Shown: positions 20,988-64,000, counted from the first letter of the stretch. The stretch is DNA of 64,000 nucleotides from Gemmatimonadota bacterium (GCA_003169895.1 PNAE01000007.1:1426880-1490879); one strand, 5' to 3'. Notes: a model not told the origin generated them from the letters alone. Made by a program: numbers and translations.

Positions 20988-21065
20988 GCTTCCTCCGCGG
21001 AGAATCGGGCCATCGCTACGGCCGGGCCATCCCGGGGCGCGCAGCGAGGACCGCCGGCTTAGACA

Positions 21066-21167: not shown

Positions 21168-21197
21168 AGCGCCTCCTCAGGGAATGCCACTTTCGGT

Positions 21198-21226: not shown

Positions 21227-21434
21227 GAGTGGCGCGAGGGCAACAGGGTGGTGAGGTTGCAACAGTCCAGCGAGCCAGTCGATCAGGCTGATTGGCCACC
21301 CGGGCGTCGGTCAGTTCCCTCAAGCGGCGGCGGGCGCCGGCGCCAGGCCGAGTCCGTTCTGATCGACGCGCCGGTGCCGATCGTCACCACGCCGCGGCTC
21401 GCGCCCACCGAGGCCAGCCGTCGGTGGGCGGCGT

Positions 21435-21594
21435 TCTTGCGGCAGATCTTTGAGGTCGACCCGCTCCGGTGCCCGTGCTGCCACGGGACCATGCGGATCA
21501 TCGCGTGCATCACACCCGAACCGCATGCGGGCTCGTGGCACGCCGCGCAGAGCCGCGCTACATTCTCAGAGTCCCGATTGAAATTCCTATCGGG
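21435..21594 (+). mobile_element. IS91/Y2-transposase C-terminal tail remnant, copy b (internally deleted)
   Basis: Encodes ...WAAFLRQIFEVDPLRCPCCHGTMRIIACIT... The DNA is near-identical to 19192-19270 and 19306-19365, with the segment between them replaced. The shared 3' end is CTCAGAGTCCCGATTGAAATTCCTATCGGG. Confidence 0.6.
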
Positions 21595-22319: not shown

Positions 22320-22772
22320 ATGCTTGTGCGCCTGATCGTCAACGGGGAGGTGAAGGAACTTGAGGTTCCGACGGGGCGGAGCCTGCTCGCCGTGCTGCGA
22401 GACGACCTCGACCTCACCGGCGCCAAGTACGGCTGTAGCCATGGCGGCTGCGGCGCCTGCATGGTGCTCGTCGATGGCGAGGCGACGCCGTCGTGCGTGA
22501 CTCCGGCGGAGACCATCGTGGGCAGGCAGATCGTCACGATCGAGGGCCTCGCCGCCGGGGCGACACTTCATCCGGTTCAACAGGCATTCCTGGATGAAGA
22601 TGCCATGCAGTGCGGTTACTGCACGACCGGCATGGTGATTAACGCCGTCGCGTTGTTGCAGCGGATCGCCACGCCGTCCGAGCGGCAGATCCGCGAGGCA
22701 CTTGCCGCCAACCTTTGTCGATGCGGCGTCTACCAGCGGGCCATTCGCGCCGTGCAGCGGGCGTCACGATGA
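22320..22772 (+). CDS. (2Fe-2S)-binding small subunit of a molybdenum hydroxylase (IorA/CoxS-like)
   Basis: Two [2Fe-2S] cysteine clusters: GCSHGGCGACMV and QCGYCTTGMV...CRCGVY. Confidence 0.9.
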   Translation: MLVRLIVNGEVKELEVPTGRSLLAVLRDDLDLTGAKYGCSHGGCGACMVLVDGEATPSCVTPAETIVGRQIVTIEGLAAGATLHPVQQAFLDEDAMQCGYCTTGMVINAVALLQRIATPSERQIREALAANLCRCGVYQRAIRAVQRASR

Positions 22773-30659: not shown

Positions 30660-30928
30660 GTGGTCCTATTGACGCTCCCACCAACCGATCGCACTATTGC
30701 CGTTGAAGGCGTGAGCCCCGCCGCCAAGGCGGCGGGCTCCCCCCCCGCAACCAACCCGCTACCGGAAGGAGCCGCCCATGCGCACAGGCCACATTCGTCA
30801 CCTCCTCCTCCTTCCTTCGACATCGCCGGGGTCACCAAGGGTACGTACACCGTGACCTGGATGCTTTCGTGCGACAATGGCGATGGCGAGGTGGTGATGA
30901 CGTCGACAGTCAAGAATACTACGGTCAC

Positions 30929-30932
<4 letters not shown>
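30660..30932 (+). CDS. hypothetical 90-aa protein upstream of the short kinase
   Basis: GTG-initiated ORF with a Pro/Ala-rich N-terminal half, then FDIAGVTKGTYTVTWMLSCDNGDGEVVMTSTVKNTTVT. Its TGA overlaps an in-frame TTG of the kinase (TTGA at 30929-30932). Confidence 0.3.
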
Positions 30933-31831
<899 letters not shown>

Positions 31832-38002: not shown

Positions 38003-38049
38003 ACCGGACGGCGTGACCGAGTGGCGTCACGGACGTCATTCAGTTTGCG

Positions 38050-40685
<2,636 letters not shown>

Positions 40686-40689
<4 letters not shown>

Positions 40690-43328
40690 TTCTTCGCTGG
40701 CCCTGCGTTCGCCACCCAGATGTCGCTTTGCTGGTCACCCAGCGTGACGTAGATCCGTTCCCCGCGGACCCGGAAGCCGAACCGGTGCCAAGGTCGGGTC
40801 GGGTCGTCGAACCGGACGACAATGTACGGGCGCGTTCCGGACACGGGTACGGCGACCACGGCAGCGACGCCGGTCGCACCCTCGGTCAGATGAAAGATCG
40901 TCCGGCCGTCGGCGGACCACTGGGGAAAGGCCCACCCAGCGGTGGCGAACGGCGACGGGATGCGGCGCCCGGCGCCGCCTGCCGCCGGGAAGACGACCAA
41001 ACCGCCAGGACCGCAACCGCAAGCGAGGACGGTACCATCGGGAGACCACACTGCGAGTCCGGGAGTCACGGTGTCAGCGCCGATCACGACGGGAAGGAGC
41101 CGCGGCGCCGACCACCGCCCATCGGCACTCCGCGCGACGATGTAAAGCGCCGGATGAATCCCCCAGTTTGCCAGCACCGCCAGGCGCTGGCCGTCCGGTG
41201 ACCATTCCGGTGACCGCACATCTTCGGCGCCATCGGTAACCGGAACCGGCCGGCCGCCTTCGGCGGGCACTACGAAGACCTGGCGACGTTGTCCGTGAAA
41301 GCTATGGAAAGCGATGGCCTTCCCATCGGGCGACCAGGCAGACCAGAACGAGCCCACGGTGTCCGTCGTCAGCTGCTGCGGTCCCGCCGGCCCGTGGCCA
41401 AGTCGGAGGCGGTAGAGCTGAGTCACTCCGCTGACGTCGGAACTGTAAGCGAGCCATTCGCCATCGAGCGACACGTCGAAGTTTTCTATCGTCTGGTTGC
41501 CCACGGTCACGGGTTGTGCCTGGGAAATCGAACGGCCGCCGCTCGTCACGGGCAGCGACCACACATTCGAGGTTTCAGTGAAACTGGAGTACGCCAGGCG
41601 CGATCCGTCCAGCGACGTCCCGATTCCCAGCGCGTTGAGCCCGGTCGTGAGCCGCACGGGCGAGCCGCTGGCCCCTCCGGAGCTGGAGAGCTTCTGCTGA
41701 TATACGTCGCGGCTCCCCTCACGATCGGAGACGAACAGTAACTCCCCGCGGGATGTCCATGCCGGACTGACGTTGAGAAAGTGTGCTTCGGTGAGCTGCG
41801 TTGGCTTCCCGCCGCTTGCCCGGACCACCTGGACGCTGCTCGGTGCGATGTTCCCGAGAGATCGGTCGTGCGCGCTGACATACTGGGTGTTACCCGAAAC
41901 GAACCCGATCCACCTGCCATCTGGTGACCACGCGGGCGAGTGAATCTCCCGGCCCGTCGTGACCAGTCGCGCTGCGCCGCCATCCACAGGCTTGGCATAT
42001 AGCGAGTCGTGTGAAACGAAGGCGACGGAGCGGCCATCCGGAGCGAGGGCAATTCCGCGCTCGGGGTTGGCTTCGGCAGCCACGAGCCGGGGCGCCCCGC
42101 CGAACGCCGGCACGACTTCCACGCCGTGCGACGAGAGATAGATCAGCCGTTGCCCATTGGGATCCCATGCGGGCCAGCGTCCCGTGCCTTCCGCTTCGCG
42201 GATGACCGAAATCGGATCGCCACCCTCGACCTGGCGGACCAGGAGAACTCCCCCGGCACCGGAGTACGCCAGGAATTTTCCGTCCGGTGAAAGCGCCGGG
42301 TCAATCTCGAGCCCCGGCTCATGGGTAATCTGGCTGCGCCTGCCCAGCGACAATGCGGTTGGTCCGCGACGTGCGAGCAGCAGCAAGCCGGCGACGCCGA
42401 GTAATAGAATGACGGCAAGAATCCCGGTAGCGGCCCCCAAGAATCGACGCCTGCCGCGCGCGGCTCGGTTGAGGCTGGAGCCCGTCTCCGTCGCTGCCCG
42501 GCCCAGGGCATCGGTGAACAGCCCGACCGGATTGAATCGATCTGCCGGCGTCTTTGCCAGCGCGCGTTGAAGTGCTGCAGCGACAGCCACCGGCACGGCG
42601 GGTCGAAGATTGGTGATCGGTGGGGCATTCACGGTGAGGTGCTGGTGGACCACGCTCTCGACCGTTGGGCCGGTGAATGGTGGTTGTCCACCGAGCATCT
42701 CGTACAGCACGCAGCCCAGCGAATACACATCACTCCGACCATCCAGGTCCTTCTCTCCCGCTGCCTGCTCCGGACTCATGTACTGCGGAGTACCGAGCAC
42801 GACGCCGGTCTCGGTCAGCGCCTCCGCGCCCGCGAGGCCGACCGCCTTCGCGATTCCGAAGTCGGTTACCACTGCGTGGCCACTCTCAAACAGGATGTTC
42901 TCCGGTTTGATGTCTCGATGGACGACGCCGTGCCCATGCGCGTAATTCAACGCCTCGCCGACTTCGCCGGCGATCCGGAGGGCATCGTTCACGGGAAGCT
43001 GCTTCTCCCGGTTGAGGCGGTCTCTGAGGCTTTCTCCCTCCACATAAGGCATGGTGTACCACAACTGACCGGCCGCTTCACCAGAATCATGCACACTGAG
43101 GATGTGTGGATGCTGGAGTCTCGCTGCGAGGCGGATCTCCCGCTGGAATCGCTCCGGACCTAGCGCGACGGCAAGTTCCTGCCGCATCACCTTGATGGCG
43201 ACCTGGCGATCGTGCTTCAGGTCCTGCGCGAGGTACACAGTCGCCATCCCGCCGGCACCGAGCTCGCGCTCGATGCGATAGCGGTCGGAGAGGGCGGTAG
43301 CGAGGCGGTGCAGGGCGTCAGCCGTCAA
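40686..43328 (-). CDS. Ser/Thr protein kinase with PD40/TolB-like beta-propeller repeats
   Basis: Same architecture (GAGGMATVYLA, HRDIKPENILF, DFGIA, AWSPDGRWIGF ...). TTG start at 43328. Confidence 0.9.
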
Positions 43329-48046: not shown

Positions 48047-50299
48047 TCAGTGCAATCCGATCTTCCGCACCATGTCGGCGAAGCGCGGATCGGAACGGAG
48101 CGGCCCATAGGCCGGATCCAGATGCAGGTAGATCAACCCGGCCGAGTGCGCGTCCAGCGCCTGCTGGAGACAATCGAAGGCTTTCTCCAGGTCGCCGAGC
48201 GCGGCGAAGCCCATCGCCAGTACCTCGGCACGGAGGTACTCGGTCTTCGCCTGCTGTTCCAGCCGCGCCATGATCGCGGTGGCATCTTCCAACTCGCCCA
48301 GCACCACCAGGGGACGGACGATCATGGCGTCATAGGATCGCACTGCCGCGCTCAGGGATTGCCCGCGACGGAACGCTTTCAGCGACTCCTCGGTGCGGCC
48401 CCGCGCCAGCTCCGCCGCGCCGATATCGAGGTACGCCTGGAAGTAATTGGGCTCGATCTCCAGCGTCTTCTGGCTCTGTTCGATCGCGGCCTCGTACCGC
48501 TCCGCATAGAGGAGGAAGCGCCCCAGCCACCGGCTGAAGTGCGCCGACAGCGGGTCGAGCACCAGCGCCTTGCGCATCTCGTCAATGCCCTCGACGAGGC
48601 GTCCGACCGCCGGCAGGGTGCTGCCATAGACGAAATGCGCCTCGGCGTAGTTCGGATTGTACTCCACGGCTTTGGCCAGCGCGTTCGAGGCGCCCTCGAA
48701 TTCCCACTCGTACCAGCAGAGGACCTTGCCGATCGAGGTGTGGGCCTCACCCAGCGTGGGTTCCAGCTGGATTGCCCGGATCGCGGCCGATTTGGCGCGA
48801 GGATAGGCCTCCTCTGGCGCGACCCAGTCGTCGGCGAGATTGCTCCAGCAGTCGGCGATTCCCGAGTAGGCCCGCGCGTAGCCGGGGTCGGCATCGAGCG
48901 CCTGCTCGAACAGCCCCAGCGCTTTGCGGAGGTCATGTTCTGCCAGGCGGTTGACGAAGAATCGTCCTTTGAGGTAGAGCGTGTAGGCTTCGAGGTTTTC
49001 CGTCGTCGGCTTAACTAGTGCCTGTGCCTGCTCGCCCATCAGCCGCACCTTCAGGGCATCGACAATGGCTCGCGAGATTTCATCCTGGATGGCGAACACG
49101 TCCTCCAGTTGTCGATCGTAGGATTCGGACCAGAGCTGGTAGCCGTTCGCGACGTTCACCAGCTGGGCGGTAATCCGGATCCGATTACCAATTTTCCGGA
49201 CGCTGCCTTCCAGCACCGAGGAGACGCCGAGCTTGGCCCCGATCTGCTGAATGTCCACCGCCTTGTTCTTGAAGGCGAAGGAGGACGTGCGCGAGGCGAC
49301 CTGGAGATCAGGAATTTTCGCGAGCGCGTTGATGATCTCCTCCGTCATCCCATCGCTGAAGTATTCGTTCTCCGGATCGGCGCTCATGTTGGTCAGCGGG
49401 AGCACGACGATCGACTTCTCGGGCGGCGCCGCAGCGGCGCGGGGCGATCCGGTCGGCGTGTGGCTGTCACGCTGGATTTGGAGCAGCGCCTCGGCAAACT
49501 CGCCGGCGGAATGAAATCGATCCACGGGCGTCCGGGCCAGCGAGCGCGTCACGGCCTGATCGAGCTGCTCCGGGACGTCGCGCATGGCGCGCACGTGCGG
49601 CACGGGAGCAATGAACCGCTTGGTGATGATGGCCTGGGCGTTGGGACCGGTGTACGGCTGCTCGCCGGTGAGCATCTCATACAGCACGCAGCCCAGGCTG
49701 TAGAGATCACTGCGGCCGTCCACCGCGGAGTCGGCGGACGCCTGCTCCGGACTCATGTACGCCGGCGTGCCCAGGGCGAACCCGGTCTGCGTGACGGACC
49801 CGCCCGCGGTGCTCAACGCCTTCCCGATGCCGAAGTCGGCCACGAGCGCCGCGTCGTCGTGCATCAGGATATTCTCGGGTTTCACATCCCGGTGGATGAC
49901 ACCCTGCCGGTGAGCGTAATCGAGAGCGGAGGCCACCTCGCACGTGATGCGTAACGCCTCATCCAGCGGGAGCATCTTTTCCTGCGCCATCCGGTCCCGG
50001 AGGGACTTCCCCTCCATGTTCGGCATCACATAGAAGAGCAGGCCTTCGGACTCGCCGGAGTCGAACACGGGCAGGATATGCGGGTGGGTGAGCCGTGCCG
50101 CGAGCTTGATCTCTCGCAGGAAACGGTCCGGACCAATTTCGCTGCCAAGCTCGGGGCGGAGCACTTTGAGGGCGACGGGCCGGTCGTGGCGCAGGTCGTG
50201 GGCCAGGAAGACGACCGCCATCCCGCCCTCACCCAGTTGCCGGTCGATGACATAGCGCCCGGCGAGGCCGCGGTTGAGACGCTCCTGCAGATCAGTCAT
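48047..50299 (-). CDS. Ser/Thr protein kinase with TolB-N-like domain and TPR repeats
   Basis: GEGGMAVVFLA, VALKVL, HRDVKPENILM, DFGIG, SPEQ; IVVLPLTNMSADPENEYFSDGMTEEI; C-terminal TPR repeats. Confidence 0.9.
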   Translation of the reverse strand: MTDLQERLNRGLAGRYVIDRQLGEGGMAVVFLAHDLRHDRPVALKVLRPELGSEIGPDRFLREIKLAARLTHPHILPVFDSGESEGLLFYVMPNMEGKSLRDRMAQEKMLPLDEALRITCEVASALDYAHRQGVIHRDVKPENILMHDDAALVADFGIGKALSTAGGSVTQTGFALGTPAYMSPEQASADSAVDGRSDLYSLGCVLYEMLTGEQPYTGPNAQAIITKRFIAPVPHVRAMRDVPEQLDQAVTRSLARTPVDRFHSAGEFAEALLQIQRDSHTPTGSPRAAAAPPEKSIVVLPLTNMSADPENEYFSDGMTEEIINALAKIPDLQVASRTSSFAFKNKAVDIQQIGAKLGVSSVLEGSVRKIGNRIRITAQLVNVANGYQLWSESYDRQLEDVFAIQDEISRAIVDALKVRLMGEQAQALVKPTTENLEAYTLYLKGRFFVNRLAEHDLRKALGLFEQALDADPGYARAYSGIADCWSNLADDWVAPEEAYPRAKSAAIRAIQLEPTLGEAHTSIGKVLCWYEWEFEGASNALAKAVEYNPNYAEAHFVYGSTLPAVGRLVEGIDEMRKALVLDPLSAHFSRWLGRFLLYAERYEAAIEQSQKTLEIEPNYFQAYLDIGAAELARGRTEESLKAFRRGQSLSAAVRSYDAMIVRPLVVLGELEDATAIMARLEQQAKTEYLRAEVLAMGFAALGDLEKAFDCLQQALDAHSAGLIYLHLDPAYGPLRSDPRFADMVRKIGLH

Positions 50300-50353
50300 G
50301 GGCAGAGAAGATGGCTCCGGACGGAGGGGAGTGCCAGTAAGCGAAGCACTCGT

Positions 50354-53014
50354 TCACTGCTTCAGCCCCTTGACGCTCGCGACCCAGATATCGCTCTGGA
50401 AATCACTCAACGTGAAGTAAAGCCAGCCGCCATACTCGGCGATGCCATTGGACGCGGTGCTGTGCGGTCGCGATGGCTCATCGAACCGCAACACGTCGCG
50501 CCACTCGCCGTCGGCGAGGCGCATGGCACCAACCAGGGCGCGCGGCTGGCCGGCGACATTGCGTTGGGCGAAAAAGTACAACGACTGTCCGTCACTTGAT
50601 CGCGCGCCCATGGTGTTCAGTGCAAGCGCCGTATCGAGGACGCGCGAAGGGATCTGCGGCCGGAACGCACTGCCAGCCACCGGCCATGCGCCGAGGTGCC
50701 CGGTCGAATCGTCGCCGAGAAGTGCCGTCCCCTCGTCGGTCCAGGTCATGAACGCGTCGCCACCGGGGGTTTGGACGGTGAGCGGCGGACCCCACTTGTC
50801 TTGTGCGTCCCGGGTGGCCACCTGTATGTAGCCGCGCACACCCTGAGCAACCAACCACGCGATGCGATGGCCATCCGGTGACCAGCTGACATTGCGCTCA
50901 TCCGGCGCGGCGCCTGGTGATAGCTGGGTCGACCTCCCGCCATCGATTGGTACGCTGAAGATCCGCCGGAGCCCTTTCACAATGGCGTGGTACGCCACCT
51001 CCTTGCCATCGGGCGAGATCGCTGGCTTGAAGGAGGGATTGGAGTCATGCGTGAGCTGCTGCACCGGACCGCCACCAAGTGGCATCCGGAAGATCTGCAT
51101 TACTCCCTGGCGGTTGGAATCGAAGACCAGCCACTTGCCATCGTGCGAGACGTCGAGGCCCTCGATGGTCTGGAGGTCATTCGTCACCGGCAACGCACCC
51201 TGCGTCGAGATAGCCCCGCTTTTCGGGATCGCGACCTTCCAGATGTTCGCATGATACGTCGCGACCGAATACGCCAACTGGGTCCCATCGGCTGAAAGCG
51301 ATATCAGCGACGGATTGAGTCCGGTGGTGACGCGCACCGGCTCGCCGTTCGGATGCCCTGAGCTGTTGACATTGATCTGATAGACATCGCGCACCCCGGC
51401 AAGCACCGATACGATAAGCAGGCGACGGGAGTCCGGCGCCCAGGTCGGGCTCAGGCTCATGCCGCCGGCGGGCGTCAATTGGATTGGCGTGCCGCCCGCA
51501 GATGAAACGAGCCAGACGCTGCTCGGCGCAATGTTGTAGGTACGGAAGTACGGAGAATTGCCCGAGACAAAAGCGATCCATTTTCCATCAGGCGACCACA
51601 CGGGCGAATGCGGGTCGAGTGCTGACGTCACAAACCGCGGTGTCCCGCCATTCGCGTCGCCAACGAACAGTGAATCGCGAATGAAGAAGGCCACCTGCTT
51701 GCCATCTGGCGACCATGATCCGAAGAACGCTTGCGGATCGATCGTCGTCCCCTGGCCACCGAGGGCCGGCTGGCTGACGAGCCCCCGGGCACCCCACACC
51801 AGCAACCGATCACCGGCTGGCGACCACGCCCTCGGGACGATGCCACCGGCGATCTGCACTGCGTCACCGCCATCGGTCCGACGAAACTCGACGTGGGGCG
51901 CACGATCGGAGGGGCCGAAGGCCCGGTAGGCAACCGACTTTCCATCGGGCGAAATGGCAGGGAATTCTTCGGTACCTGCCGCGCGCGTGAGCTGGGTGTT
52001 TGACGTGATCACCGCCGCAGCCGGCGGACGGTTCGTCAGCCAGAGCACCAATGCAGCGCACGCAACGACGCCTGCACCCGCAAGTATGAACTTCGGCCAT
52101 GGACTTGCTGAGCGAATTGCAGCCACCGGCCGCGTCTCCGTCGGTGTCAATCCCCCGCTCGGCGTCGCGAGCGGTTCCAGTGCCGCATGCAGCTCGGCCG
52201 CGGTTTGGAACCGATCAGCCGGTCGCTTCGCGAGGCAACGCATCACGACCGCCTCGATCGCCGGCGGAATTGCCGGACGGCGCTTCGACACCGAGTCGGG
52301 CGCCTCAGTCACGTGCGCGGCAAGGACCTGTTGCGGCGTACTTCCCGTGAAGGGCGGTCGACCGCTGAGCATCTCATACGCCATCACGCCAACAGAGTAG
52401 ATGTCGGAGCGATGGTCGACATGCGGATCGGCGGCGGCCTGTTCCGGTGACATGTACGTTGGCGTGCCCACAGCAACGCCGAGCGTGGTGATCGTGTTAC
52501 GGCCCGTGGCTTCGCTGATCGCCTTCGCCAGGCCGAAATCGGTCACCAGCGCGTGGCGACCCGAGAGCATCACATTGTCTGGCTTGATGTCGCGATGCAC
52601 GACGCCGTGCGCGTGCGCCTCGACGAGCGCGTCGGCCACCTCCGTCAACAGTCGCACCGCTTCGTGGACCGGTAGTTCCCCCTCGCGGGCGAGGCGTTCG
52701 CGAAGGGATTGCCCCTTGATATACGGCATGACGAAAAAGAGGAATCCGTCGGCTTCACCGGAATCGAGCAGCGGCAGGATGTGGGGATGCTGCAGCTGTG
52801 CCGCGATCTTGATCTCGCGGAGGAATCGCCCCGCCCCGAGGGAGGCGGAAAGATCCTCGCGGAGCACCTTGATCGCCACCTCGCGCTCGTGCTTGATGTC
52901 GTGCGCGAGATAGACCGTGGCCATGCCGCCCTGACCGAGCTCGCGCTCGATGCGGTAGCGGTCGGACAAAGCGGCGGTGAGCCTGGTCCTGATGTCAGAC
53001 ACCGACCACCTCAA
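50354..53014 (-). CDS. Ser/Thr protein kinase with PD40/TolB-like beta-propeller repeats
   Basis: [27 protein letters not shown], a TM helix, and blades (SWSPDGKQVAF, VWSPDGKWIAF, SWSPDGHRIAW). The start is TTG at 53014 or the homologous GTG at 53002. Both overlap the vapC 3' end. Confidence 0.9.
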   Translation of the reverse strand: MRWSVSDIRTRLTAALSDRYRIERELGQGGMATVYLAHDIKHEREVAIKVLREDLSASLGAGRFLREIKIAAQLQHPHILPLLDSGEADGFLFFVMPYIKGQSLRERLAREGELPVHEAVRLLTEVADALVEAHAHGVVHRDIKPDNVMLSGRHALVTDFGLAKAISEATGRNTITTLGVAVGTPTYMSPEQAAADPHVDHRSDIYSVGVMAYEMLSGRPPFTGSTPQQVLAAHVTEAPDSVSKRRPAIPPAIEAVVMRCLAKRPADRFQTAAELHAALEPLATPSGGLTPTETRPVAAIRSASPWPKFILAGAGVVACAALVLWLTNRPPAAAVITSNTQLTRAAGTEEFPAISPDGKSVAYRAFGPSDRAPHVEFRRTDGGDAVQIAGGIVPRAWSPAGDRLLVWGARGLVSQPALGGQGTTIDPQAFFGSWSPDGKQVAFFIRDSLFVGDANGGTPRFVTSALDPHSPVWSPDGKWIAFVSGNSPYFRTYNIAPSSVWLVSSAGGTPIQLTPAGGMSLSPTWAPDSRRLLIVSVLAGVRDVYQINVNSSGHPNGEPVRVTTGLNPSLISLSADGTQLAYSVATYHANIWKVAIPKSGAISTQGALPVTNDLQTIEGLDVSHDGKWLVFDSNRQGVMQIFRMPLGGGPVQQLTHDSNPSFKPAISPDGKEVAYHAIVKGLRRIFSVPIDGGRSTQLSPGAAPDERNVSWSPDGHRIAWLVAQGVRGYIQVATRDAQDKWGPPLTVQTPGGDAFMTWTDEGTALLGDDSTGHLGAWPVAGSAFRPQIPSRVLDTALALNTMGARSSDGQSLYFFAQRNVAGQPRALVGAMRLADGEWRDVLRFDEPSRPHSTASNGIAEYGGWLYFTLSDFQSDIWVASVKGLKQ

Positions 53015-53411
53015 GCCCCCTGGCTCGTGCGGCGATCGCTAGTGATTTGTCGTGGGTCGCCATCGTTAACGTGACCTCCCGGGCGTCGCGCCACGCGATC
53101 GCCGTGGAAAGGTGAATGGCGTCGAGTGTGCCGAGGGGCGTGGGGAAGGGCTCGGGCGCGCGACGCAACACGGCACCGCTGATGTCGACCACCTCGACCT
53201 CCTCGAGCAATCGGTAGCATGCCATGCGCCGGTCGGCGACCTCCTGCGGGGAGAGCGAGCCGGTTCGTGCCATCCGGTCAAGGGTACGCAAGCATTCGAC
53301 CTCGGTGAGCGCACTCGTGACCGCTCCAGAATACTGCTGGCGCTTCACCAGCGGTTTCGGCTCGCCAAGGACGAGGCGCAGCACGATCGACGCGTCCAGA
53401 TAGATGATCAT
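52995..53411 (-). CDS. vapC: PIN-domain ribonuclease toxin VapC
   Basis: MIIYLDASIVLRLVLGE (first acidic residue), ...TSALTEVEC..., ...LGTLDAIHLSTA..., ...ATHDKSLAIAARARG. This is the typical PIN acidic quartet spacing in 139 aa. Confidence 0.8.
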   Translation of the reverse strand: MIIYLDASIVLRLVLGEPKPLVKRQQYSGAVTSALTEVECLRTLDRMARTGSLSPQEVADRRMACYRLLEEVEVVDISGAVLRRAPEPFPTPLGTLDAIHLSTAIAWRDAREVTLTMATHDKSLAIAARARGLEVVGV

Positions 53412-53573
53412 CGCGTCGACTGGCGTTCCTCGAGCAGCGAGGCCAGGCTGTCGACCCGGTGTCTGGTCATGTCGGGCAAGCGCCCAAGTCATTGCTTCAG
53501 CCTTGCCCGTCTTGATCTCGGCGAGGAAGCGGTCGGCAATGCAGCGGTGAGCCGGGCCCGGCGTATCAATCAC
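53408..53573 (-). pseudogene. possible disrupted VapB/Phd-type antitoxin
   Basis: The upstream part (GTG 53573: IDTPGPAHRCIADRFLAEIKTGKAEAMT) is in the same frame as vapC, with no stop between them. A second frame gives MTRHRVDSLASLLEERQSTR*, whose TGA overlaps the vapC ATG (ATGA). The two pieces look like one antitoxin split by a frameshift. Confidence 0.25.
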
Positions 53574-53722
53574 GCGGTGTCCTCGTCGTGCGGAATGTGC
53601 GATGTGTATTGGGAAGCCCAAAGGTACCATCGCCGGGGGATTGCGCCATCGAAAAGGCGCCAGGCGCGTGACCTCGTATGCTCGCTTATTCTCTGCCACA
53701 CCCTGTGGCCTTCCCGCCACTC

Positions 53723-53751
53723 TTGCGCCCGGCTCCAACGACCTGCATCAT
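53723..53751 (+). promoter_or_regulatory. putative sigma70-type promoter of the P3-amidohydrolase cassette (TTGCGC-N17-CATCAT)
   Basis: CCACTCTTGCGC-ccggctccaacgacctg-CATCAT. It is homologous position-for-position to the element upstream of P2 (21198-21226, minus strand). Confidence 0.4.
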
Positions 53752-53782
53752 ATTGATAGGCAGGATTCTCTCAGGAGGCAGT

Positions 53783-53881
53783 ATGAAGAAAGAGTTCGTT
53801 GCCCCGACGATCCGGGAAGAGGCGACCCTGAGTCAGTTGACCCTGAGGCAGGGCCTCTCGGGAAGCAACGACGAACTTTAA
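53783..53881 (+). CDS. 32-aa peptide P3 with lasso-type leader: MKKEFVAPTIREEATLSQLTL-RQGLSGSNDEL
   Basis: AGGAGG lies 4 nt before the ATG. The leader is conserved with P1 and P2. The TAA (53879-53881) is followed after 1 nt by the TTG start of the amidohydrolase (53883). Confidence 0.6.
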   Translation: MKKEFVAPTIREEATLSQLTLRQGLSGSNDEL

Positions 53882-53882
53882 G

Positions 53883-55127
53883 TTGACCGTCGTCGCTGCA
53901 TGCGCAAGGAAGCGCCCGGCCACCCGGGCGCTCCTTGTTTTCTGGGCATCGGTCAGCATCGCCGGTACCTCCTGCCAGTCGAGCCCGCTCCCGGTGACCC
54001 TCCGCGCCGGCCTCCTCCTCGACGGGCGGGGCGGCCAGATGCGGGACGCGGTGATCACCGTGGTGAACGGCCGGATCGCGACCGTGGCTCCCTGGCGGGA
54101 CGACTCCGTCACCTACGACCTCTCCCGCTATACCGTCCTCCCCGGCCTGATCGACGCGCACGTCCACCTCAACGGATTCCTCAACCATCTGGGGAGGCTG
54201 GCCAACACCGACGACGGTGAGACGTCGGCACAGCGCGCGGCGGCGCGCGCGGCCGTCGCCCTCGCCACCCTGCGTGCCGGGTTCACCACGGTGGCGAGCA
54301 TGGGCGCCGAGGCCGAAAAGGAACTCCGCGATGAGATCAACGCCGGCGCCCTTCCCGGCCCCCGCATCCTGACCTCCCTGGCCCAGATCCACGGCAACGC
54401 CCTCGCGCCCGATGCACTCCGGCGCCTGGTGCAGCGCCACGCGTCCGACCGCGCCGACTTCATCAAGATCTTCGCATCCAACGCCCTCAGAGATGGCGGC
54501 GTGCCCGTGTTCACCCTCGAGCAGCTCTCGGCCCTCTGCGGCGAGGCCCGCCGACTCAAGCTCCGCTCGGTGGTCCACGCCCAAGACGATGCCTCGCTCC
54601 GCCAGGCTGCGGCCGCCGGTTGCACCGAGGTCGAGCACGGCGCGCTTGCCACTGCGGCGGGCCTCGAGGTTCTCGCCAGCCGCGGCGTGTACTTCGATCC
54701 CCAATGCGGGCTCGTGCTTCGCAACTACCTCGAGAACCGCGCGCGCTTCGAGGGGATCGCCGATTTCGACTCCACCGGATTCGCGCTCATGACGCGGTTG
54801 CTCCCGTTGTTGCCGAACCTCCTGCGCACCGCCCTCGCCACGCCCGGTCTCAAGCTCCTGTACGGGACCGACGCAACCGCCGGCGCCCACGGACGGAACG
54901 CCGAGGACCTGGTCTGCCGGGTCCGGGAGGCGGGACAATCGCCGATGGATGCGCTGGTCACCGCCACTTCCCGGAACGCCGCTGCCTTGGGACTGGGGCG
55001 CGAGATCGGCACGATCGCCCCGGGATACCAGGCCGACCTGATCGCGCTCGACGGCGATCCGCTCCAGAAGATCGAGGCGGTGTTGCGTGTGAAGTTCGTG
55101 ATGAAGGGCGGGGTGGTGTACCACTAG
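53883..55127 (+). CDS. metal-dependent amidohydrolase, exported; copy 2
   Basis: The TTG start gives MTVVAACARKRPATRALLVFWASVSIAGTSC (signal/lipobox-like). PGLIDAHVHL metal motif. Paralog of 19613-20809. Confidence 0.85.
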   Translation: MTVVAACARKRPATRALLVFWASVSIAGTSCQSSPLPVTLRAGLLLDGRGGQMRDAVITVVNGRIATVAPWRDDSVTYDLSRYTVLPGLIDAHVHLNGFLNHLGRLANTDDGETSAQRAAARAAVALATLRAGFTTVASMGAEAEKELRDEINAGALPGPRILTSLAQIHGNALAPDALRRLVQRHASDRADFIKIFASNALRDGGVPVFTLEQLSALCGEARRLKLRSVVHAQDDASLRQAAAAGCTEVEHGALATAAGLEVLASRGVYFDPQCGLVLRNYLENRARFEGIADFDSTGFALMTRLLPLLPNLLRTALATPGLKLLYGTDATAGAHGRNAEDLVCRVREAGQSPMDALVTATSRNAAALGLGREIGTIAPGYQADLIALDGDPLQKIEAVLRVKFVMKGGVVYH

Positions 55128-57709: not shown

Positions 57710-58339
57710 CTGATCCTCTCCGGTTGAGCCGCTGGTTGAGCATGGTTCAGTCTATGCATCTGCAGTTGAACTCCGCCGGTGGAGATCTCGTTGCTCCATC
57801 TCGATGTTCCGTCGGGCTCCATGTACAACCCACGTCGCGGGGAAACGACAAGGCACATCCGGTACCGTTGTCCGAGCTTCGCCATCTTCTTCCAGGCTCG
57901 AGCTACGAGGGTTTGCATGCTAGCTCGTTCCGGCATCCCTACGACCATGCACACCCCAGGCATGAGGCGGACGACGAGATACGGCGCGAACGTTACTGAC
58001 TGAGCGGCAGGCGGAGACGCGGCAGGCGTGCGCGGCATGGGAATACCCTTTCGGCCAGATGGGGACCGCACATGGTTCCCGCCACTGCAGCGGGTTGGCG
58101 TTGCCACCGTGAGATGCCGTGGGGCATCGGGGTAACGGCGTGGCGGACGGATCAATGAGCCAGGTCTCTCCCCGTCCTCTTCATGCAGTCGACGGACGTT
58201 CCGCCGATCGGCGAACACTGTCAGTTTGGTGCGAAGTCGGCAAGCCCGACCGATTTCAGTCAGCCGTACCGAAGACCCCCAAGTGGCGGACGGGGGCTTA
58301 CGTTAAATGGCTCTCGCCGATCACCGGAGGTACCAACCC

Positions 58340-58840
58340 ATGCCTTACCAGCTCAAAATCAACGGGAAGACCACAACGGTTGACGTGCCCGCCGACATGC
58401 CCCTGCTCTGGGTGTTGCGCGACGTGCTGGATCTTAAGGGCACCAAGTTCGGCTGCGGCGTGGCGCAGTGCGGTGCGTGCATGGTTCACGTCGCGGGCAC
58501 GGCGACGCGATCGTGTATCCTGCCCGTGTCCGCCGTCGGGGCATCGCCGATCACGACCATCGAGGGCCTCGCTCCCGACGCGTCACACCCGCTCCAGCGC
58601 GCCTGGCAGGAACTCGACGTGTCGCAATGCGGCTACTGCCAGCCGGGCCAATTGATGTCGGCGGCGGCGTTGCTGGTGCGGACACCCAAGCCCACCGACG
58701 CTGATATCGACGCCGCGATGGATGGCAATATCTGCCGCTGCACCACATACCTCAGGATCCGACAGGCGATTCATCATGCAGCGGGCAATTCCGCTCCGCC
58801 CGCCACACCGATGCCCAAGGGCAGCAAGGGGGCGTTGTGA
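58340..58840 (+). CDS. (2Fe-2S)-binding small subunit (IorA-like)
   Basis: [10 protein letters not shown]..., [32 protein letters not shown] at 58340 with GGAGG 9 nt upstream. Confidence 0.9.
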
Positions 58841-61071
58841 GCACGCTCACTGTGGGCCGCCGCGGTTTCCTGAAGGTCACGGTTCTAGCGGGCGGTAGCC
58901 TCCTCCTCGGCGCGTATTTCGAGCCCGTGCGAGCCATCACCGGCAAGGCGTCGCGCGCGGCCGACTTCATGCCCAACGCATACATCAGGATCGCGGCCGA
59001 TGGTGCCGTCACCATCATCGCCAAGAATCCTGAAATCGGCCAGGGAATCAAGACCGCGTTCCCGATGATCATCGCCGACGAGCTCGATGTCGATTGGAAG
59101 AGCGTCACGGTGGAAATGGCGATGGCCGACCAGGCGAAGTATGGCAGTCAGAACGTCGGCGGAAGCAGCTCGACGCCCAACAACTACACGACACTGCGCC
59201 GGGTAGGCGCGGCCGGGCGACAGCTGTTCGTGACCGCTGCCGCCCAGACCTGGAACGTGCCGGAGTCCGAGTGCACCACCGCGTCCGGCACGGTCTTTCA
59301 CCGGAGCAGCAATCGCAAGCTCGGTTACGGCGAGCTGATTGCCAAGGCGGCGACACTGCCGCCACCCGACCTGCAGTCCGTTACGCTCAAGGACCCGAAG
59401 GACTTCAAGATCATCGGCACGCCGGTGCCGAACGTCGACGCACCGGGGATCGTGCGCGGCATGCCGATGTACGGCATCGACGTCACCTTGCCGGGCATGT
59501 TGTACGCCGTGTACGCCAAGTGTCCTGTGTTCGGCGGCAAGGTGGCGAGCGTCGATCTCGCCGCAGTGAAGGCGATGCCCGGCGTGCGACACGCGTTCGT
59601 TGTGGACGGCGCGTCGCCGGGGATGAGCGCCGGCCTCAACCCCGGCGTCGCCATCGTTGCCGATTCCTGGTGGTACGCCAAGACCGCGCGCGACAAGATG
59701 CGCGTCACCTGGGACGAGGGCTCGACGGAGGGACAGAGTACGGCCGAGTTCGCCCAACGGGCGGCAGAACTCTCGCAGCAGTCGCCGGAGCGGTCAGTCC
59801 GCAAGGACGGCGACGTCGATGCTGCGCTGAGCGGCGCGGCGAAGGTCGTTGCAGCCGCCTATAGCTACCCGTTCCTGGCCCACGCGCCGCTCGAGCCGAT
59901 GAACTGCACCGCGTCCTGGCAGAACGGCAAGCTGGAGATGTGGGCGCCATCGCAGGGGCCGTTCGGCGGCGGCCAGCTTGCCGCGAGAACAGTCGGCATT
60001 CCGGAGAGCGACGTCACCGTGCACATCACGCGTGCCGGCGGCGGCTTTGGCCGGCGAGGATTCAACGATTTCATGGCCGAAGCCGCGTGGATCGCGAAGA
60101 CCATTGGCGGGCCGGTGAAGCTGCTATGGACTCGCGAGGACGACATTCAACACGACTATTATCGCCCGGGGGGCTTCCATTTCCTCAAGGGCGGCGTCGA
60201 CGCCGACGGGAAGCTGGTCGCCTGGCACAACCATTTTGTGTCGTTCGGCGAGAACGGTCGGGCCGCCCTCACGGCGGACCTCTCGGCGAGCGAGTTCCCC
60301 GCGCGGTTCGTGCCCAACTATGCGCTCGACATATCGCTCATCCCGCTCCGCGTCCCGACCGGGTGGCTGCGCGCTCCCGGCAGCAATGCACTCGCGTTCG
60401 TCATGCAGTCGTTTATCGACGAGCTTGCGCACGCCGCCGGCAAGGACCCGTTGCAGTTCCGCCTCGACCTCCTCGGCGCGCCTCGCATGGTGACGGACCC
60501 TCCCGGCGCCGGCGGTGCCCGCGGTCGTCGCGGGGGCGGCGGCTACGACGCGGCCCGCATGCGCGGCGTGCTGGAACTGGTACGTGACAAGTCGGGATGG
60601 GACAACCGCCAACTACCCGGTGGCACGGGAATGGGAGTGGCATTTCACTTTTCGCATCGCGGCTACTTCGCGGAGGTCGTCGAAGCCAGCGTCGACGCAA
60701 CGAACCTGCTCAAGGTGCACAAGATCTGGATTGCCGGGGACATCGGCAGTCAGATCATCAATCCGTCGGCCGCGATCGGCCAGGCACAGGGCGCCGCGCT
60801 GGATGGCCTCGCACAGGCGCTCGGGCAGGAGATTACCATCGACAGGGGCCGCGTAGTGCAAAGCAATTTCCACAACTTCGCGCTGCTGCGGCATCGCCAG
60901 GCGCCGGCCGAGGTCGAGGTGCATTTCCGGATCACCGACAATCCGCCCACCGGGCTCGGCGAACCGGCGCTGCCGCCGGTGATTCCGGCACTGTGCAACG
61001 CGATCTTCGCGGCGACAGGCAAGCGGATCCGGGCGTTGCCGATCTCGAAGCAAGGGTTGCGGGTCGCTTGA
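58837..61071 (+). CDS. molybdopterin-binding large subunit (IorB-like) with Tat signal
   Basis: The GTG overlaps the small-subunit stop (GTGA). Tat motif [43 protein letters not shown]; C-terminal [23 protein letters not shown]. Confidence 0.9.
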
Positions 61072-61084
61072 GCGTCGCGGAGCG

Positions 61085-62194
61085 ATGAAACACTGGCAGG
61101 AGGCCCGGCAAGTCTTCGAATGGCTCTCGACGCTGAATACCGAGCAGCGCCGCGCCGCGCTGGCGACCGTAGTGTGCGTTCACGGTTCAGCGTACCGCCG
61201 CGAAGGCGCCAAGATGGCCGTGGCGGAGGACGGTGCCTGCGTCGGGAATGTGAGCGGCGGATGCCTCGAACTGGACGTGCGGGAGGTGGCGTTGCAGGTA
61301 ATCGCCTCGCAGGTTCCCCAGTTGCGCAGCTATTGCTCGGGCGGGGACGAGGTTCGCGCCTGGGATCTCGGCGTCGGTTGTGAGGGAGAGGTCAAGGTAT
61401 TCGTCGAGCCCGCGTACTCCACGTCAGCGATCGAACAGGGACTGTTGGCAGCGGGGCTCCCGTTCGCCGTGTGCACGATGATTCGCACCGAACCAGCAAC
61501 CAACCGGCCAAACCGACTTATTGTCACCGCACGCGGCGTCGAAGGCAATTCTGAGGACAGCGACATCAATACCGCGGTGGTTGCCGAAGCGCGGGGATTG
61601 CTTGCGGTGGATGCGCCAAGCTCGCTTCGGGACGTTGCCGGGACGGCCGTATTCGTCGACGTGTATCGGGTGCCGCCGCATCTGGTGATCGTCAGCGCCG
61701 GCAACGATGCCCGGCCGCTGGCGCGCTTCGCCGTGGAAGCGGGGTTCCGCGTCACGGTGGTCGATCACCGTCCCGGGCTGCTGCTGACCGATCGGTTCCC
61801 CGGTGCCGCCACGCTGATCGACAGCTTCCCCGCGGACCTCGTGCGGCGGGTGCAGTTCGACGACCACACTTTCGCTGTCGTGATGACGCACAACTTCGCG
61901 GACGACGAGCAGTACCTTCGGGCGCTCGTCGCGACCTCCGTTGCTTACATCGGCGTGCTGGGGCCACGTCAGCGCACGGAACGTCTCCTGCGCAATGTCG
62001 CGGGCGACTCGTCGCTCGACACCGATCGCATCTACGCTCCGGTCGGCCTCGACGTCGGCACCGATGGCGCCGAGCAGGTCGCGCTGGCCATCATCGCGGA
62101 GATGCTGGCGGTGCGCGGCGGGCGCCAGCCGCAATCGCTGCGCGAGCGCCCGCTGCCGATTCATGCCGCCGGCGGGGTGGGGCGTGGGGCATGA
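61085..62194 (+). CDS. XdhC/CoxI-family molybdenum-cofactor insertion chaperone
   Basis: N-terminal XdhC_CoxI pattern (ALATVVCVHGSAYRREGAKMAV...GNVSGGCLE) and a C-terminal Rossmann part (HLVIVSAGNDARPLARFA..., VVMTHNFADDEQYL). Confidence 0.85.
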   Translation: MKHWQEARQVFEWLSTLNTEQRRAALATVVCVHGSAYRREGAKMAVAEDGACVGNVSGGCLELDVREVALQVIASQVPQLRSYCSGGDEVRAWDLGVGCEGEVKVFVEPAYSTSAIEQGLLAAGLPFAVCTMIRTEPATNRPNRLIVTARGVEGNSEDSDINTAVVAEARGLLAVDAPSSLRDVAGTAVFVDVYRVPPHLVIVSAGNDARPLARFAVEAGFRVTVVDHRPGLLLTDRFPGAATLIDSFPADLVRRVQFDDHTFAVVMTHNFADDEQYLRALVATSVAYIGVLGPRQRTERLLRNVAGDSSLDTDRIYAPVGLDVGTDGAEQVALAIIAEMLAVRGGRQPQSLRERPLPIHAAGGVGRGA

Positions 62195-62933: not shown

Positions 62934-63389
62934 GTGCCCAGTTTCACCCTCACCATCAATGGCAAGCAGCAGTCCGTCGACGTTGCCGCGGACACACCGC
63001 TCCTCTGGGTCCTGCGCGATAATCTTGGCCTCACCGGTACCAAGTTCGGTTGCGGCATCGGCGAATGCGGCGCCTGCACCGTCCATATCGACGGCGCCGC
63101 CACTCGCTCATGCTCCACGCCAGTCAGCACCGTCGCCGGCAGGCGGGTGACGACGATCGAGGGACTCTCCAGCGACCGCAGCCACGCAGTGCAGAAAGCC
63201 TGGATCGCCGACGACGTGCCGCAGTGCGGCTACTGCCAGTCCGGCCAGATCATGGTGGCGGCAGCACTCCTGGCGAAGGGTGGCAAGCCCACCGACGTGG
63301 ATATCGACACCGCCATGACCAACATCTGCCGCTGCGGCACCTACCAGCGGATTCGCACAGCGATTCATCACGCCGCCGGGGAGGTGTGA
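62934..63389 (+). CDS. (2Fe-2S)-binding small subunit (IorA-like), third paralog
   Basis: [11 protein letters not shown]..., [29 protein letters not shown]. Confidence 0.9.
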
Positions 63390-63390
63390 C

Positions 63391-64000
63391 ATGAGCGCTC
63401 CCCGCGAAGTCTCCCGCCGCGAATTCATCCAGGCGACGTCGGTCGCCGGCGCCGGGCTGCTGATCGGCTTCTCGCTCACCGGCTGTGCGCCGACACCGAC
63501 AGCACCGGCGGGCCCGCCGGTCCCGCTCAACGCCTGGCTCCGTATCGCGTCCGACGACAGCATTACGGTGATTGTCGACCGATCCGAAATGGGCCAGGGG
63601 GTGACCACCGCGCTGCCGATGCTGCTGGCCGAAGAGCTCGAGGTGGACTGGGCGAAAATCGCGATCGAATTCGCCCCGGCCGACAAGGTGTACACCAATC
63701 CCCTGTTCGGCATGCAGGGCACCGGCGGCAGCAGCAGCGTGCGCGTCGCCTTTGTCCCGCTGCGCCAGACCGGTGCCGCCGCACGCGAGATGCTGATCTC
63801 AGCCGCCGCCACAACCTGGAAGGTGGACCGGAGTGAATGCCACGCCGAAACTGGCGCGGTGATTCACACCAGCAGCAAGCGCAAGCTCCGCTACGGCGAA
63901 CTGGTGAAGGCGGCTGCAGCGCTCCCGGTGCCGAAGGACGTGCCGCTCAAGGATTCCAAGGCGTGGAAGGTGATCGGCACGCGCACCAAGCGCCTCGATA
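63391..64000 (+). CDS. molybdopterin-binding large subunit (IorB-like), 3'-truncated by window end
   Basis: My own translation from the ATG at 63391: MSAPREVSRREFIQATSVAGAGLLIGFSLTGC... (Tat-like plus lipobox), then SEMGQGVTTALPMLLAEELEVDW, collinear with 58837-61071. It is open to the end of the window, so it is not in the ORF track. Confidence 0.85.
   Translation, partial: MSAPREVSRREFIQATSVAGAGLLIGFSLTGCAPTPTAPAGPPVPLNAWLRIASDDSITVIVDRSEMGQGVTTALPMLLAEELEVDWAKIAIEFAPADKVYTNPLFGMQGTGGSSSVRVAFVPLRQTGAAAREMLISAAATTWKVDRSECHAETGAVIHTSSKRKLRYGELVKAAAALPVPKDVPLKDSKAWKVIGTRTKRLD

Follow-up and report, generated by a model that had tools for sequence, protein, structure and literature searches.

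Lasso-type leader peptide genes joined to a putative exported amidohydrolase through a terminator-like hairpin within its signal-peptide codons in soil Gemmatimonadales

The stretch of DNA analysed here is a 64,000-nt window of a Gemmatimonadota bacterium genome (GCA_003169895.1 PNAE01000007.1:1426880-1490879), to which all coordinates refer unless a contig is named. It carries two copies of a cassette in which one or two small peptide genes directly precede a gene for an amidohydrolase with a lipoprotein-type N-terminus, and in both copies a GC-rich hairpin after the last peptide gene lies within the predicted signal-peptide codons of the enzyme. An initial annotation had described the two cassettes with their shared promoter-like motif TTGCGC-N17-CAT(G/C)AT, peptide genes of the form GGAGG-N4-ATG and a junction of stop codon, single G and (T/C)TG, and we found each of these elements where it had been placed. 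The hairpin and its T tract were absent from that description and proved to be a key element of the unit.

Copy 2 lies on the plus strand. Its promoter-like element (53723-53751, +) is composed of TTGCGC (53723-53728), a 17-nt spacer and CATCAT (53746-53751), with 31 nt between the end of the -10-like hexamer and the ATG of peptide gene P1. The Shine–Dalgarno (SD) sequence GGAGG (53774-53778) is separated from this ATG by 4 nt, and SD and gene together occupy 53774-53881 (+). P1 itself (53783-53881, +) encodes the 32-aa peptide MKKEFVAPTIREEATLSQLTLRQGLSGSNDEL, comprising the leader MKKEFVAPTIREEATLSQLTL and the core RQGLSGSNDEL, and is identical to public protein P0149, which was recovered in the family profile search described below and is annotated solely as 'hypothetical protein'. 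The junction with the enzyme reads TAA, a single G and TTG (53882-53885, +) and has no preceding SD; this TTG is the sole start codon upstream of the signal-peptide codons. An intrinsic-terminator-like element follows (53911-53942, +), made up of the hairpin AGCGCCCGG-ccac-CCGGGCGCT (53911-53932) and the tail CCTTGTTTTC, and in the enzyme frame hairpin and tail read K-R-P-A-T-R-A-L-L-V-F. The lipoprotein-type signal peptide (53883-53975, +) is MTVVAACARKRPATRALLVFWASVSIAGTSC, with its Cys at codon 31, and the PF01979 amidohydrolase (53883-55127, +) has 414 aa counted from the TTG. Public gene calls (P0002) begin the enzyme at an internal GTG (53994) and give it 377 aa, and because of this the export signal has been overlooked and an exact look-up of the 414-aa enzyme among public proteins returned no match. 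Just upstream of the -35 element, an inverted repeat, GCCACAcccTGTGGC (53695-53709, +), was read from the sequence. Similar short inverted repeats stand 5' of the -35 element in relatives, and this one could be an operator or the end of a neighbouring unit. A PIN-domain toxin gene (52995-53420, -) is located directly 5' of copy 2, and its counterpart on L001, an orthologous contig, has a PhdYeFM antitoxin gene called beside it.

Copy 1 lies on the minus strand and contains two peptide genes, both with GGAGG-N4-ATG. The promoter-like element (21198-21226, -) reads TTGCGC (21226-21221), a 17-nt spacer and CATGAT (21203-21198). Peptide gene P3 (21167-21066, 33 aa; MRKQFIAPVIREEATLSQLTL plus ASPGISGARDFD) has its SD at 21176-21172, the two spanning 21066-21176 (-), and P2 (20987-20877, 36 aa; leader MKKKFVAPVIREEATLSQLTL plus a 15-aa core) has its SD at 20996-20992, together spanning 20877-20996 (-). 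P2 has no promoter motif of its own and is identical to P0147, another 'hypothetical protein'. After the junction, TAG-G-CTG, a terminator-like element (20814-20849, -) is formed by the hairpin GAAGCGCCCGG-ccag-CCGGGCGCTTC (20849-20824) and TCTGCTTCTG, all within codons K-R-P-A-S-R-A-L-L-C-F. The frame of the PF01979 amidohydrolase (19613-20875, -) is open from the junction CTG (20875-20873) to a TAG at 19613 and includes a lipobox Cys at 20785-20783. No ATG, GTG or TTG is present upstream of the signal-peptide codons of this copy, which leaves the CTG at the junction as the sole option; the first canonical start is a TTG at 20809, inside the signal peptide, and would truncate it.

The two copies are 84% identical over 1373 nt (blastn); in addition, the region of copy 2 with promoter and first peptide aligns at 80% to the distal peptide gene of copy 1. 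By the same method the three peptide genes are the only ones in the window, with no fourth copy. At the protein level the mature enzymes share 86.7% identity (dS 0.39, dN/dS 0.21), in line with the 85-90% estimated by eye in the initial annotation, and these values indicate old paralogues that are both under purifying selection. Dozens of unrelated contigs show this layout as well. Judged from these sequences, the cassette is conserved as a unit across soil Gemmatimonadales and is no coincidence.

The 5' and 3' borders of the peptide unit are conserved in the family described below. Of 51 distinct regions upstream of family peptide genes, 28 contain TTGCGC-N17-CATSAT; the spacer is 17 nt in each, and with a single exception the motif lies 26-35 nt 5' of the ATG. 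Upstream regions without the motif mostly belong to internal genes of arrays. A GC-rich hairpin with stems of 9-17 bp stands 21-45 nt 3' of the last peptide stop in every array. Its core is GCGCCCGG-N4-CCGGGCGC, followed by a T-rich run in nearly all loci. Within the window this hairpin motif is restricted to the two cassettes. The copy 2 hairpin was flagged by a terminator scan and has a fold energy of -33.7 kcal/mol (z = -3.25 relative to shuffles). The copy 1 hairpin (-35.8 kcal/mol, z = -3.45) went unflagged by a simple terminator scan owing to its weaker T tract. Covariation confirmed the structure across 21 loci: 94.8% of cells were paired and 5 of the 12 pairs had changed on both sides, compared with at most 53% pairing in slid controls. 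One compensatory pair, between copy 1 and L002, combines a Lys-to-Glu replacement on one arm with a synonymous Leu change on the other.

The hairpin also follows peptide genes that have no enzyme behind them (peptide 1 of L005, the first array of L006, L010, L019, L020, L025, L027 and L031), so it belongs to the peptide unit. Most simply, it would be the terminator of that unit; it could instead be a 3' stabiliser, a processing stop or a block to translation initiation. With a promoter motif, a strong SD, one to three open reading frames (ORFs) and a terminator-like hairpin, each array has the features expected of a self-contained, strongly expressed unit.

Where an enzyme gene follows, the hairpin takes on a second role. 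In its frame, the stem reads K-R-P-x-x-R-A, the T tract supplies Leu and Phe codons, and a hydrophobic stretch and a Cys come next. All 20 distinct loci keep the frame between the hairpin and the mature domain, over lengths of 63, 66, 69, 72 and 75 nt, and 32 of 37 full-length homologues have a KRPxxRA n-region, a hydrophobic run and a Cys 10-26 aa after the RA. We conclude that the hairpin stretch is translated and that its product resembles a lipoprotein signal peptide, in agreement with the exported or lipoprotein-type N-terminus first proposed for the window enzymes. Their N-termini are RKRPATR-ALLVFWASVSIAG-TSC and TKRPASR-ALLCFWALIGVAG-ASC. Residues -3 to -1 before the Cys are G-T/A-S, compared with L-A/S-G/A in the classic lipobox, and one subclade (P0056, P0067) has an AxA/AQ-type site in place of the Cys. 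Conservation of KRPGNRA is unusual for the n-region of a signal peptide and can be attributed to the RNA structure that these codons form.

Start codons of the enzyme are tied to the end of the peptide gene in ways that differ by lineage. Measured from the first base of the peptide stop, a candidate is always present in the range -23 to +28 nt; none has an SD, and codon and position vary: TTG or CTG at +4 in the window, L001 and L028; an ATG overlapping the peptide by 14-23 nt in L005 and L007-type loci; GTG at +10 to +19 in L002, L006, L023 and L033; and ATG at +16 or +28 in L015, L039 and L041. The stable hairpin begins within ~30 nt 3' of the enzyme start and should hinder de novo initiation there. 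Termination-reinitiation is the simplest reading of this arrangement. The coupling of enzyme translation to the peptide suggested earlier thus fits the SD-less start at or near the peptide stop throughout the family; the exact stop-G-start junction is confined, outside the window, to L001 and L028. A programmed frameshift producing a peptide-enzyme fusion (the enzyme is in the +1 frame in most loci) was considered and set aside as unnecessary and unsupported. At the copy 1 junction, the CTG sits in a predicted 6-bp stem, CUGACcgucGUCAG (20859-20875, -), just 5' of the main hairpin; its counterpart in copy 2 has only 3 bp.

Both enzymes match PF01979 (E 4e-35 and 6e-34). Among NCBIfam models they come closest to NF051886, the Caulobacter-type Xaa-Pro dipeptidase, scoring 199.7 and 185.2 bits where the cut-off is 500. 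Their nearest relatives of solved structure are the ochratoxin-degrading amidohydrolase 8IHQ and the L-Arg carboxypeptidase Cc2672 (3MTW), both matched at E about 4e-41, along with other Arg carboxypeptidases and prolidases. Metal ligands of the carboxypeptidase/prolidase group within the amidohydrolase superfamily are an HxH pair, a carboxylated Lys, two His and an Asp. In alignments with 8IHQ and 3MTW, the window motifs IDAHVH, FIKIF, VVHAQ, EVEHG and YGTDA fall on the HxH, Lys, His, His and Asp motifs of these structures, which bears out the HxH metal site noted at first. The alignments identify both enzymes as intact metal-dependent hydrolases of a group whose members cut the amide bond to a C-terminal residue, a group we take to be COG1228. 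The PF01979 fold and the aligned metal ligands are shared with the Xaa-Pro dipeptidase, Cc2672 and ochratoxin amidohydrolases (8IHQ, 4C5Y). The window enzymes fall below the equivalog cut-off and so are not orthologues of a characterised enzyme, and they differ further in their lipoprotein-type signal peptide and predicted co-transcription with a peptide gene.

Homologues of the enzyme number in the thousands and are of two kinds according to their N-termini. The first begins with KRPGNRA(L/F)LL...Cys and accounts for 37 of the best 120 homologues as called, plus 15 truncated versions. The second is more distant (54-63% identical) and has an ordinary MKK...AQ signal peptide. In all seven KRPxxRA-type loci whose upstream DNA was read (both window copies, L005, L006, L007, L039 and L041), the peptide is present, and one to three family ORFs lie directly 5' of the enzyme in the contexts of L005, L006, L007-9, L039 and L041. 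The two plain-signal-peptide types examined (L036/37 and L038) have their own SD and no peptide. A neighbourhood survey of the kind first proposed, asking whether a small ORF always precedes the enzyme, therefore gives a divided answer: it does for every KRPxxRA-type examined and does not for the distant types.

Approached from the peptide side, the 33 distinct arrays divide into 20 with an enzyme within ~120 nt, 11 without and 2 undecidable; arrays reached through the peptide and not through the enzyme have the enzyme or lack it at roughly 12 to 10. One of the 20 enzyme arrays is a relic of an internal deletion in which signal-peptide codons and the last 20 enzyme codons survive. Two loci record such losses at nucleotide level. 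In L006 (2947-3100), 'PVPDPTAPKRPGNRALL' is joined to the last ~20 enzyme codons, with peptides and hairpin intact. In L025 (8241-8400), the hairpin and ~10 signal-peptide codons are left beside intact peptides in a neighbourhood syntenic with that of L007. Genes surrounding the cassettes differ by locus and include PIN/kinase, TPR/TonB, UPF0182/PQQ, PALP/BNR and aldehyde dehydrogenase genes.

This distribution permits a reading in which peptide unit and enzyme share no biochemistry. The enzyme would be a periplasmic peptidase or amidase for nutrient or envelope amides, like its peptide-less relatives. Arrival of a peptide unit 5' of the gene would have cost it its own promoter, SD and signal peptide; it would now be expressed from the promoter of that unit, with the terminator recruited as a new signal peptide. 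Distant relatives that have no peptide and possess an SD and a signal peptide of their own, peptide arrays that outlive deletion of the enzyme, and the lack of a C-terminal residue common to the peptides are all compatible with such a capture of expression, as is the presence of peptide units 5' of other, unrelated genes, whose products are a membrane protein, a Big_2 protein and a hydrolase of the beta-lactamase fold. However, the pair is kept down to ~57% enzyme identity and in many neighbourhoods, the cassette has been duplicated as a unit, and several independent start-codon solutions keep the enzyme next to the end of the peptide gene, a pattern suggestive of selected co-expression and not of accident. 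We regard a purely expression-based association as possible but rather unlikely.

The peptides belong to a family that has no model in current databases. None of the three window peptides matched Pfam or NCBIfam at E <= 1, and a padded 67-aa ORF query found one relative only, on a 3.1-kb contig where PIN gene, peptide and enzyme are arranged in the same order. A strict degenerate leader pattern applied to 185,579 species genomes gave one true match, in a Gemmatimonadales metagenome-assembled genome (MAG) with quite different neighbours; L003 and L004 were chance matches of this pattern within unrelated genes. A looser pattern applied to metagenome contigs gave 26 loci, four of which (L012, L013, L026 and L030) failed the peptide filter and are probably chance matches. 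Recruits from the DNA pattern scans were combined into a 42-sequence alignment, and the resulting profile detected at least 172 protein clusters of 29-66 aa, none with a Pfam domain or with any name other than 'hypothetical', nearly all of them on Gemmatimonadales-like metagenome contigs.

Leader-coding regions have pN/pS of 0.24-0.33 and third codon positions about twice as variable as first and second positions, so the leader is under purifying selection. Counted back from an invariant LT-L, every member has Phe at -17, Pro at -14, Leu or Ile at -12 and Thr at -2. The Phe, Pro and Thr were partly imposed by the search pattern, and profile recruits found without it show the same residues. The lasso peptide leader motif is YxxPxL at -17 to -12 with Thr (rarely Ile or Val) at -2 (PMC10368454), and its spacing is matched family-wide, so the lasso-type leader first seen in the window peptides extends to the whole family. 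The cores are hypervariable, 7-25 aa long and of two types, xxAVSGxxxD... and GxxVCSxCD..., which share only a [VLI]-[S/C] position. The SG[AS]xD that had seemed conserved is kept only in the clade of the window, and the proposal that the enzyme acts at this site on the leader-bearing precursor is unlikely as stated because the enzyme is of exported type and the precursor has no export signal. A double-glycine export leader was rejected, as the hydrophobic spacing before SG[AS] departs from the consensus.

Arrays contain one to three peptide genes, with up to six genes in a 9-kb locus. In L046 (714-8946), five family peptide genes are spread over 8 kb without an amidohydrolase, two of them overlapping stop-to-start (1066-1161 and 1158-1253); here the family is multi-copy and dispersed within one genome. 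At 5685-7088 of L006, the gene after a divergent family peptide, MKKTFTAPVLSPGPTLGAITRDVTGVSSSPFPD, encodes a polytopic membrane protein of 408 aa that matches neither Pfam nor NCBIfam models. Proteins with an FGE-sulfatase domain occur near peptide arrays twice (L031, 3913-6993; L046, 3401-4846), one of them fused to a Ser/Thr kinase, and Rce1-like/CPBP intramembrane proteases likewise occur twice (L007, 499-1299; L031, 6986-7792). These neighbours may reflect modification of the conserved Cys/Ser, immunity or chance. Individual SDs, low pN/pS, third-position variation and 172 clusters with a conserved leader and variable core suggest that the peptides are real products.

The sequence of small ORF, terminator-like hairpin and gene, with stop and start adjacent, is also that of regulatory leader peptides such as trpL, tnaC and speFL, and strong conservation of the N-terminal two thirds of the peptide would suit an ORF that only controls the amidohydrolase through the hairpin, whose formation would depend on how ribosomes behave on the ORF. 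The initial annotation had offered this purely regulatory role as an option. It is difficult to reconcile with a C-terminus, the part nearest the peptidyl-transferase centre, that is the least conserved part of the peptide, and with peptide units that keep the hairpin where no enzyme follows (11 of 33 arrays), occur in tandem arrays of two or three and several times on a contig, and survive enzyme loss. Moreover, one family member (L034) heads an operon of kinase and PqqD genes, no alternative antiterminator pairing was seen in the folds, and an Rfam scan of both junction regions gave no match at E <= 1. We consider a solely regulatory peptide improbable.

Could the peptides instead be ordinary lasso peptides, cleaved after LTL and cyclised from residue 1 to an Asp at 8-10 by a distant B/C pair, with the amidohydrolase as an accessory? 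A lasso core is expected to open with a small residue and to place Asp or Glu at position 7-9. Known lasso peptides have at least ~13-15 aa with rings of 7-9 residues, and the window cores are too short to thread: Asp is at position 9 (RQGLSGSND-EL, with an N-terminal Arg) or 10 (ASPGISGARD-FD and the P2 core), leaving tails of 2-5 residues. Several cores elsewhere in the family have no acidic residue at all, and neither an Asn-synthetase-like cyclase nor a transglutaminase-like B2 protein was found among Pfam-annotated genes of the window or ~40 loci. The leader spacing does agree with this reading, many cores of the Cys-rich subfamily start with Gly and have Asp at position 9, and lasso clusters have been reported from Gemmatimonadota MAGs (PMC11316326). 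On balance we attach little weight to canonical lasso peptides.

A connection to leader recognition comes from two loci. In L034, a family peptide (core FQAVSGGEAAPT) is followed by a 322-aa HprK-like kinase (HAG...SGKST...DD) and a PqqD protein; the kinase matches HprK_rel_A weakly (E 6.5e-6, far below the family cut-off), and the PqqD protein matches PF05402 above threshold (E 2.6e-13). In L047, genes for NTP_transf_5, PqqD, an HprK-like protein and a GT2 glycosyltransferase lie 5.6 kb from a two-peptide cassette, the best NCBIfam match of this PqqD being the lasso PqqD chaperone, below its cut-off. Lasso kinases phosphorylate a core Ser of their precursor in a manner dependent on the leader and the RiPP (ribosomally synthesised and post-translationally modified peptide) recognition element (RRE), and by this analogy the conserved core Ser is a plausible modification site.

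The closest known counterparts on the peptide side are lasso precursors with a split B1 protein (PqqD-type RRE) and an HPr-kinase-like kinase, such as the paeninodin type and BsfA/BsfK/BsfB1 of Bradymonas (PMC10368454). Shared with these are a leader whose positions -17, -14, -12 and -2 are aromatic, Pro, Leu and Thr, respectively, a length of ~30-40 aa divided between conserved leader and variable core, the L034 kinase (H..G..GKS..DD) and PqqD after the peptide, and the L047 nucleotidyltransferase. The present family differs in that no cyclase or B2 protein stands beside any member, cores are too short or have an ill-placed acidic residue, genes are dispersed and multi-copy with their own promoter and terminator, and the usual neighbour is an exported-type amidohydrolase, which is no known lasso accessory.

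Taken together, these observations lead us to propose that the small ORFs are precursors of a dispersed family with a lasso-type (RRE-type) leader and that, in one Gemmatimonadales lineage, an exported amidohydrolase has been fused onto the peptide unit. The hairpin would encode the n-region and the T tract the L/F-rich start of the hydrophobic core of its signal peptide. With the hairpin inside signal-peptide codons and an SD-less start at the peptide stop, the enzyme would be made only from transcripts that pass the hairpin and by ribosomes that re-initiate after the peptide; these ribosomes would also melt the hairpin and stop it from forming behind the polymerase. The expected outcome is much peptide and little enzyme in a fixed ratio. 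We infer that the peptides are modified in the cytoplasm, probably by leader-dependent enzymes encoded elsewhere, and then exported, and that the periplasmic lipoprotein acts on the exported product in C-terminal trimming, activation or self-protection. Whether precursor peptides are indeed produced in excess, with a carboxypeptidase-type amidohydrolase made by read-through and coupling and acting on their exported product, we judge to be an evenly balanced question.

Several points weigh against this proposal. Neither partner needs the other, given that 11 of the 33 arrays have no enzyme and distant enzymes have no peptide. A lasso cyclase, B2 peptidase, radical-SAM, YcaO or LanM-type enzyme is not found in the window, and there is no modifying enzyme, RRE or exporter in the window or beside most cassettes. 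The RRE and kinase link comes from one adjacent locus (L034) and another 5.6 kb away (L047). No common C-terminal residue of the peptides hints at a carboxypeptidase specificity, and known relatives within COG1228 reportedly favour very small substrates, according to work of the Raushel laboratory. In copy 1, the enzyme has only a CTG start and the T tract is weak. Finally, the case for termination, read-through and re-initiation is built from sequence.

A more specific and more tentative version, which we think rather unlikely, is that of a new RiPP-like class in which PqqD-recognised non-lasso peptides are modified at a core Ser or Cys (e.g., by HPr-kinase-like phosphorylation), exported, and processed or disarmed in the periplasm by a dedicated lipoprotein amidohydrolase hard-wired to them through the combined terminator and signal peptide.

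Parts of this arrangement have precedents. The initial annotation knew of no RiPP or signalling system in which a lasso-type leader peptide is paired with an enzyme of the amidohydrolase superfamily. PurAH/BotAH, which removes the follower peptide of bottromycin, is a precedent for such an enzyme in a RiPP pathway (PMC10885120), though not a close one in sequence. Like the window enzyme, PurAH/BotAH belongs to the dinuclear-metal amidohydrolase superfamily; it is encoded with a RiPP precursor and cuts at the C-terminal side of the core. Unlike the window enzyme, which is of exported type and paired with a peptide bearing an N-terminal leader, it is cytoplasmic, encoded in a YcaO cluster and acts with a leaderless precursor, and it is absent among solved chains that match the window enzyme at E <= 1e-10.

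Leaky terminators are known from lantibiotic operons, where lanA is followed by a weak terminator, and from colicin operons, where one precedes the gene of the lysis lipoprotein. As proposed for the cassette, a small and highly expressed structural gene ends in a hairpin, the accessory gene is reached only by read-through, so that the structural product greatly outnumbers the accessory one, and the downstream product can be a lipoprotein. In those operons the hairpin and T tract do not double as signal-peptide codons of the next protein, nor is that protein started at the upstream stop. Prochlorosins offer a parallel to the dispersed precursors: many procA genes, mostly far from a single promiscuous maturase, have a near-invariant leader and hypervariable cores. 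Here, too, dispersed paralogous precursor genes combine a conserved leader with hypervariable cores. The leader is lasso-like and not of the Nif11 kind, phylum and presumed chemistry differ, and prochlorosins have no fused exported hydrolase. In the open-access literature we found no pairing of a lasso-type leader with an amidohydrolase and no account of this peptide family.

The surroundings of copy 1 contain traces of mobile DNA. Two direct repeats flank it, one downstream (proximal, 19186-19365, +) and one upstream (distal, 21429-21594, +), with ~2.24 kb from start to start. They are 84% identical over 181 aligned nt and 96-98% identical in two gap-free blocks. Translated, the proximal repeat resembles the C-terminus of a transposase (..FEVDPLRCPCCHGTM.IIACIT..), and the pair together gives a transposase-like C-terminal fragment (..LRQIFEVDPLRCPCCHGTM.IIACIT..) that is presumably IS91-like. 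An HTH_Tnp_1 (PF01527) ORF (18357-18956, -) adjoins the repeats, and a mobile element may have helped to move or duplicate copy 1. Just 3' of the copy 1 enzyme is a long inverted repeat (19440-19600, minus-strand reading), GTCATCCTGAGCGAAG ... CTTCGCTCAGGATGAC, which resembles REP-like elements of other soil phyla.

Elsewhere in the window, a defence island with lower GC content at third codon positions (1459-11524) includes genes for a C5 DNA methylase (1459-2808), a Bpu10I-like restriction endonuclease (2708-3658), RmuC (3785-5257), an SMC/AAA_13-type ATPase (5296-7656) and a GmrSD-HNH nuclease (9089-10438). The 64 kb also contain eight Ser/Thr protein kinase genes (12868-17832, 30869-31831, 35828-43328 and 48047-53014): four encode fusions to PD40/TolB-like beta-propellers, three encode fusions to TPR repeats and one (30869-31831) encodes a kinase domain only. 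Pairs of these kinases flank both cassettes, and kinases also flank L039. As candidate partners of the cassette they were rejected, being frequent throughout the window and also flanking the peptide-less enzyme of L036. Three IorA/IorB-like sets of 2Fe-2S and molybdopterin subunits (22320-24769, 58307-62194 and 62934-63999), one with XdhC, were identified as well, and kinases, cassette and IorAB genes keep the same left-to-right order in both regions, the cassette itself being inverted between them. Mo-oxidoreductase, FtsH and toxin-antitoxin genes are likewise part of the window.

What is unusual in these genomes is an orphan, dispersed family with lasso-type leaders and a terminator that would double as the signal-peptide code of the next gene. 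To our knowledge, almost no natural products have been characterised from Gemmatimonadota. If the proposal holds, soil Gemmatimonadales harbour an abundant and unannotated peptide family of at least 172 clusters for which no Pfam or NCBIfam model exists, and the leader and the KRPxxRA signal peptide would provide two sequence handles for mining it. A lasso-type leader would be tied to a non-lasso outcome and to an exported amidohydrolase, giving genome miners a new co-occurrence rule. One 30-nt element would serve as transcription stop, translation barrier and signal-peptide code, and this dual coding would explain why gene callers start the enzyme at an internal GTG and miss its export. It would also be a clear case of a transcription stop signal recruited as an export signal. 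Even if the enzyme has only been captured for expression, the dual-coding element and the peptide family would still be of interest.

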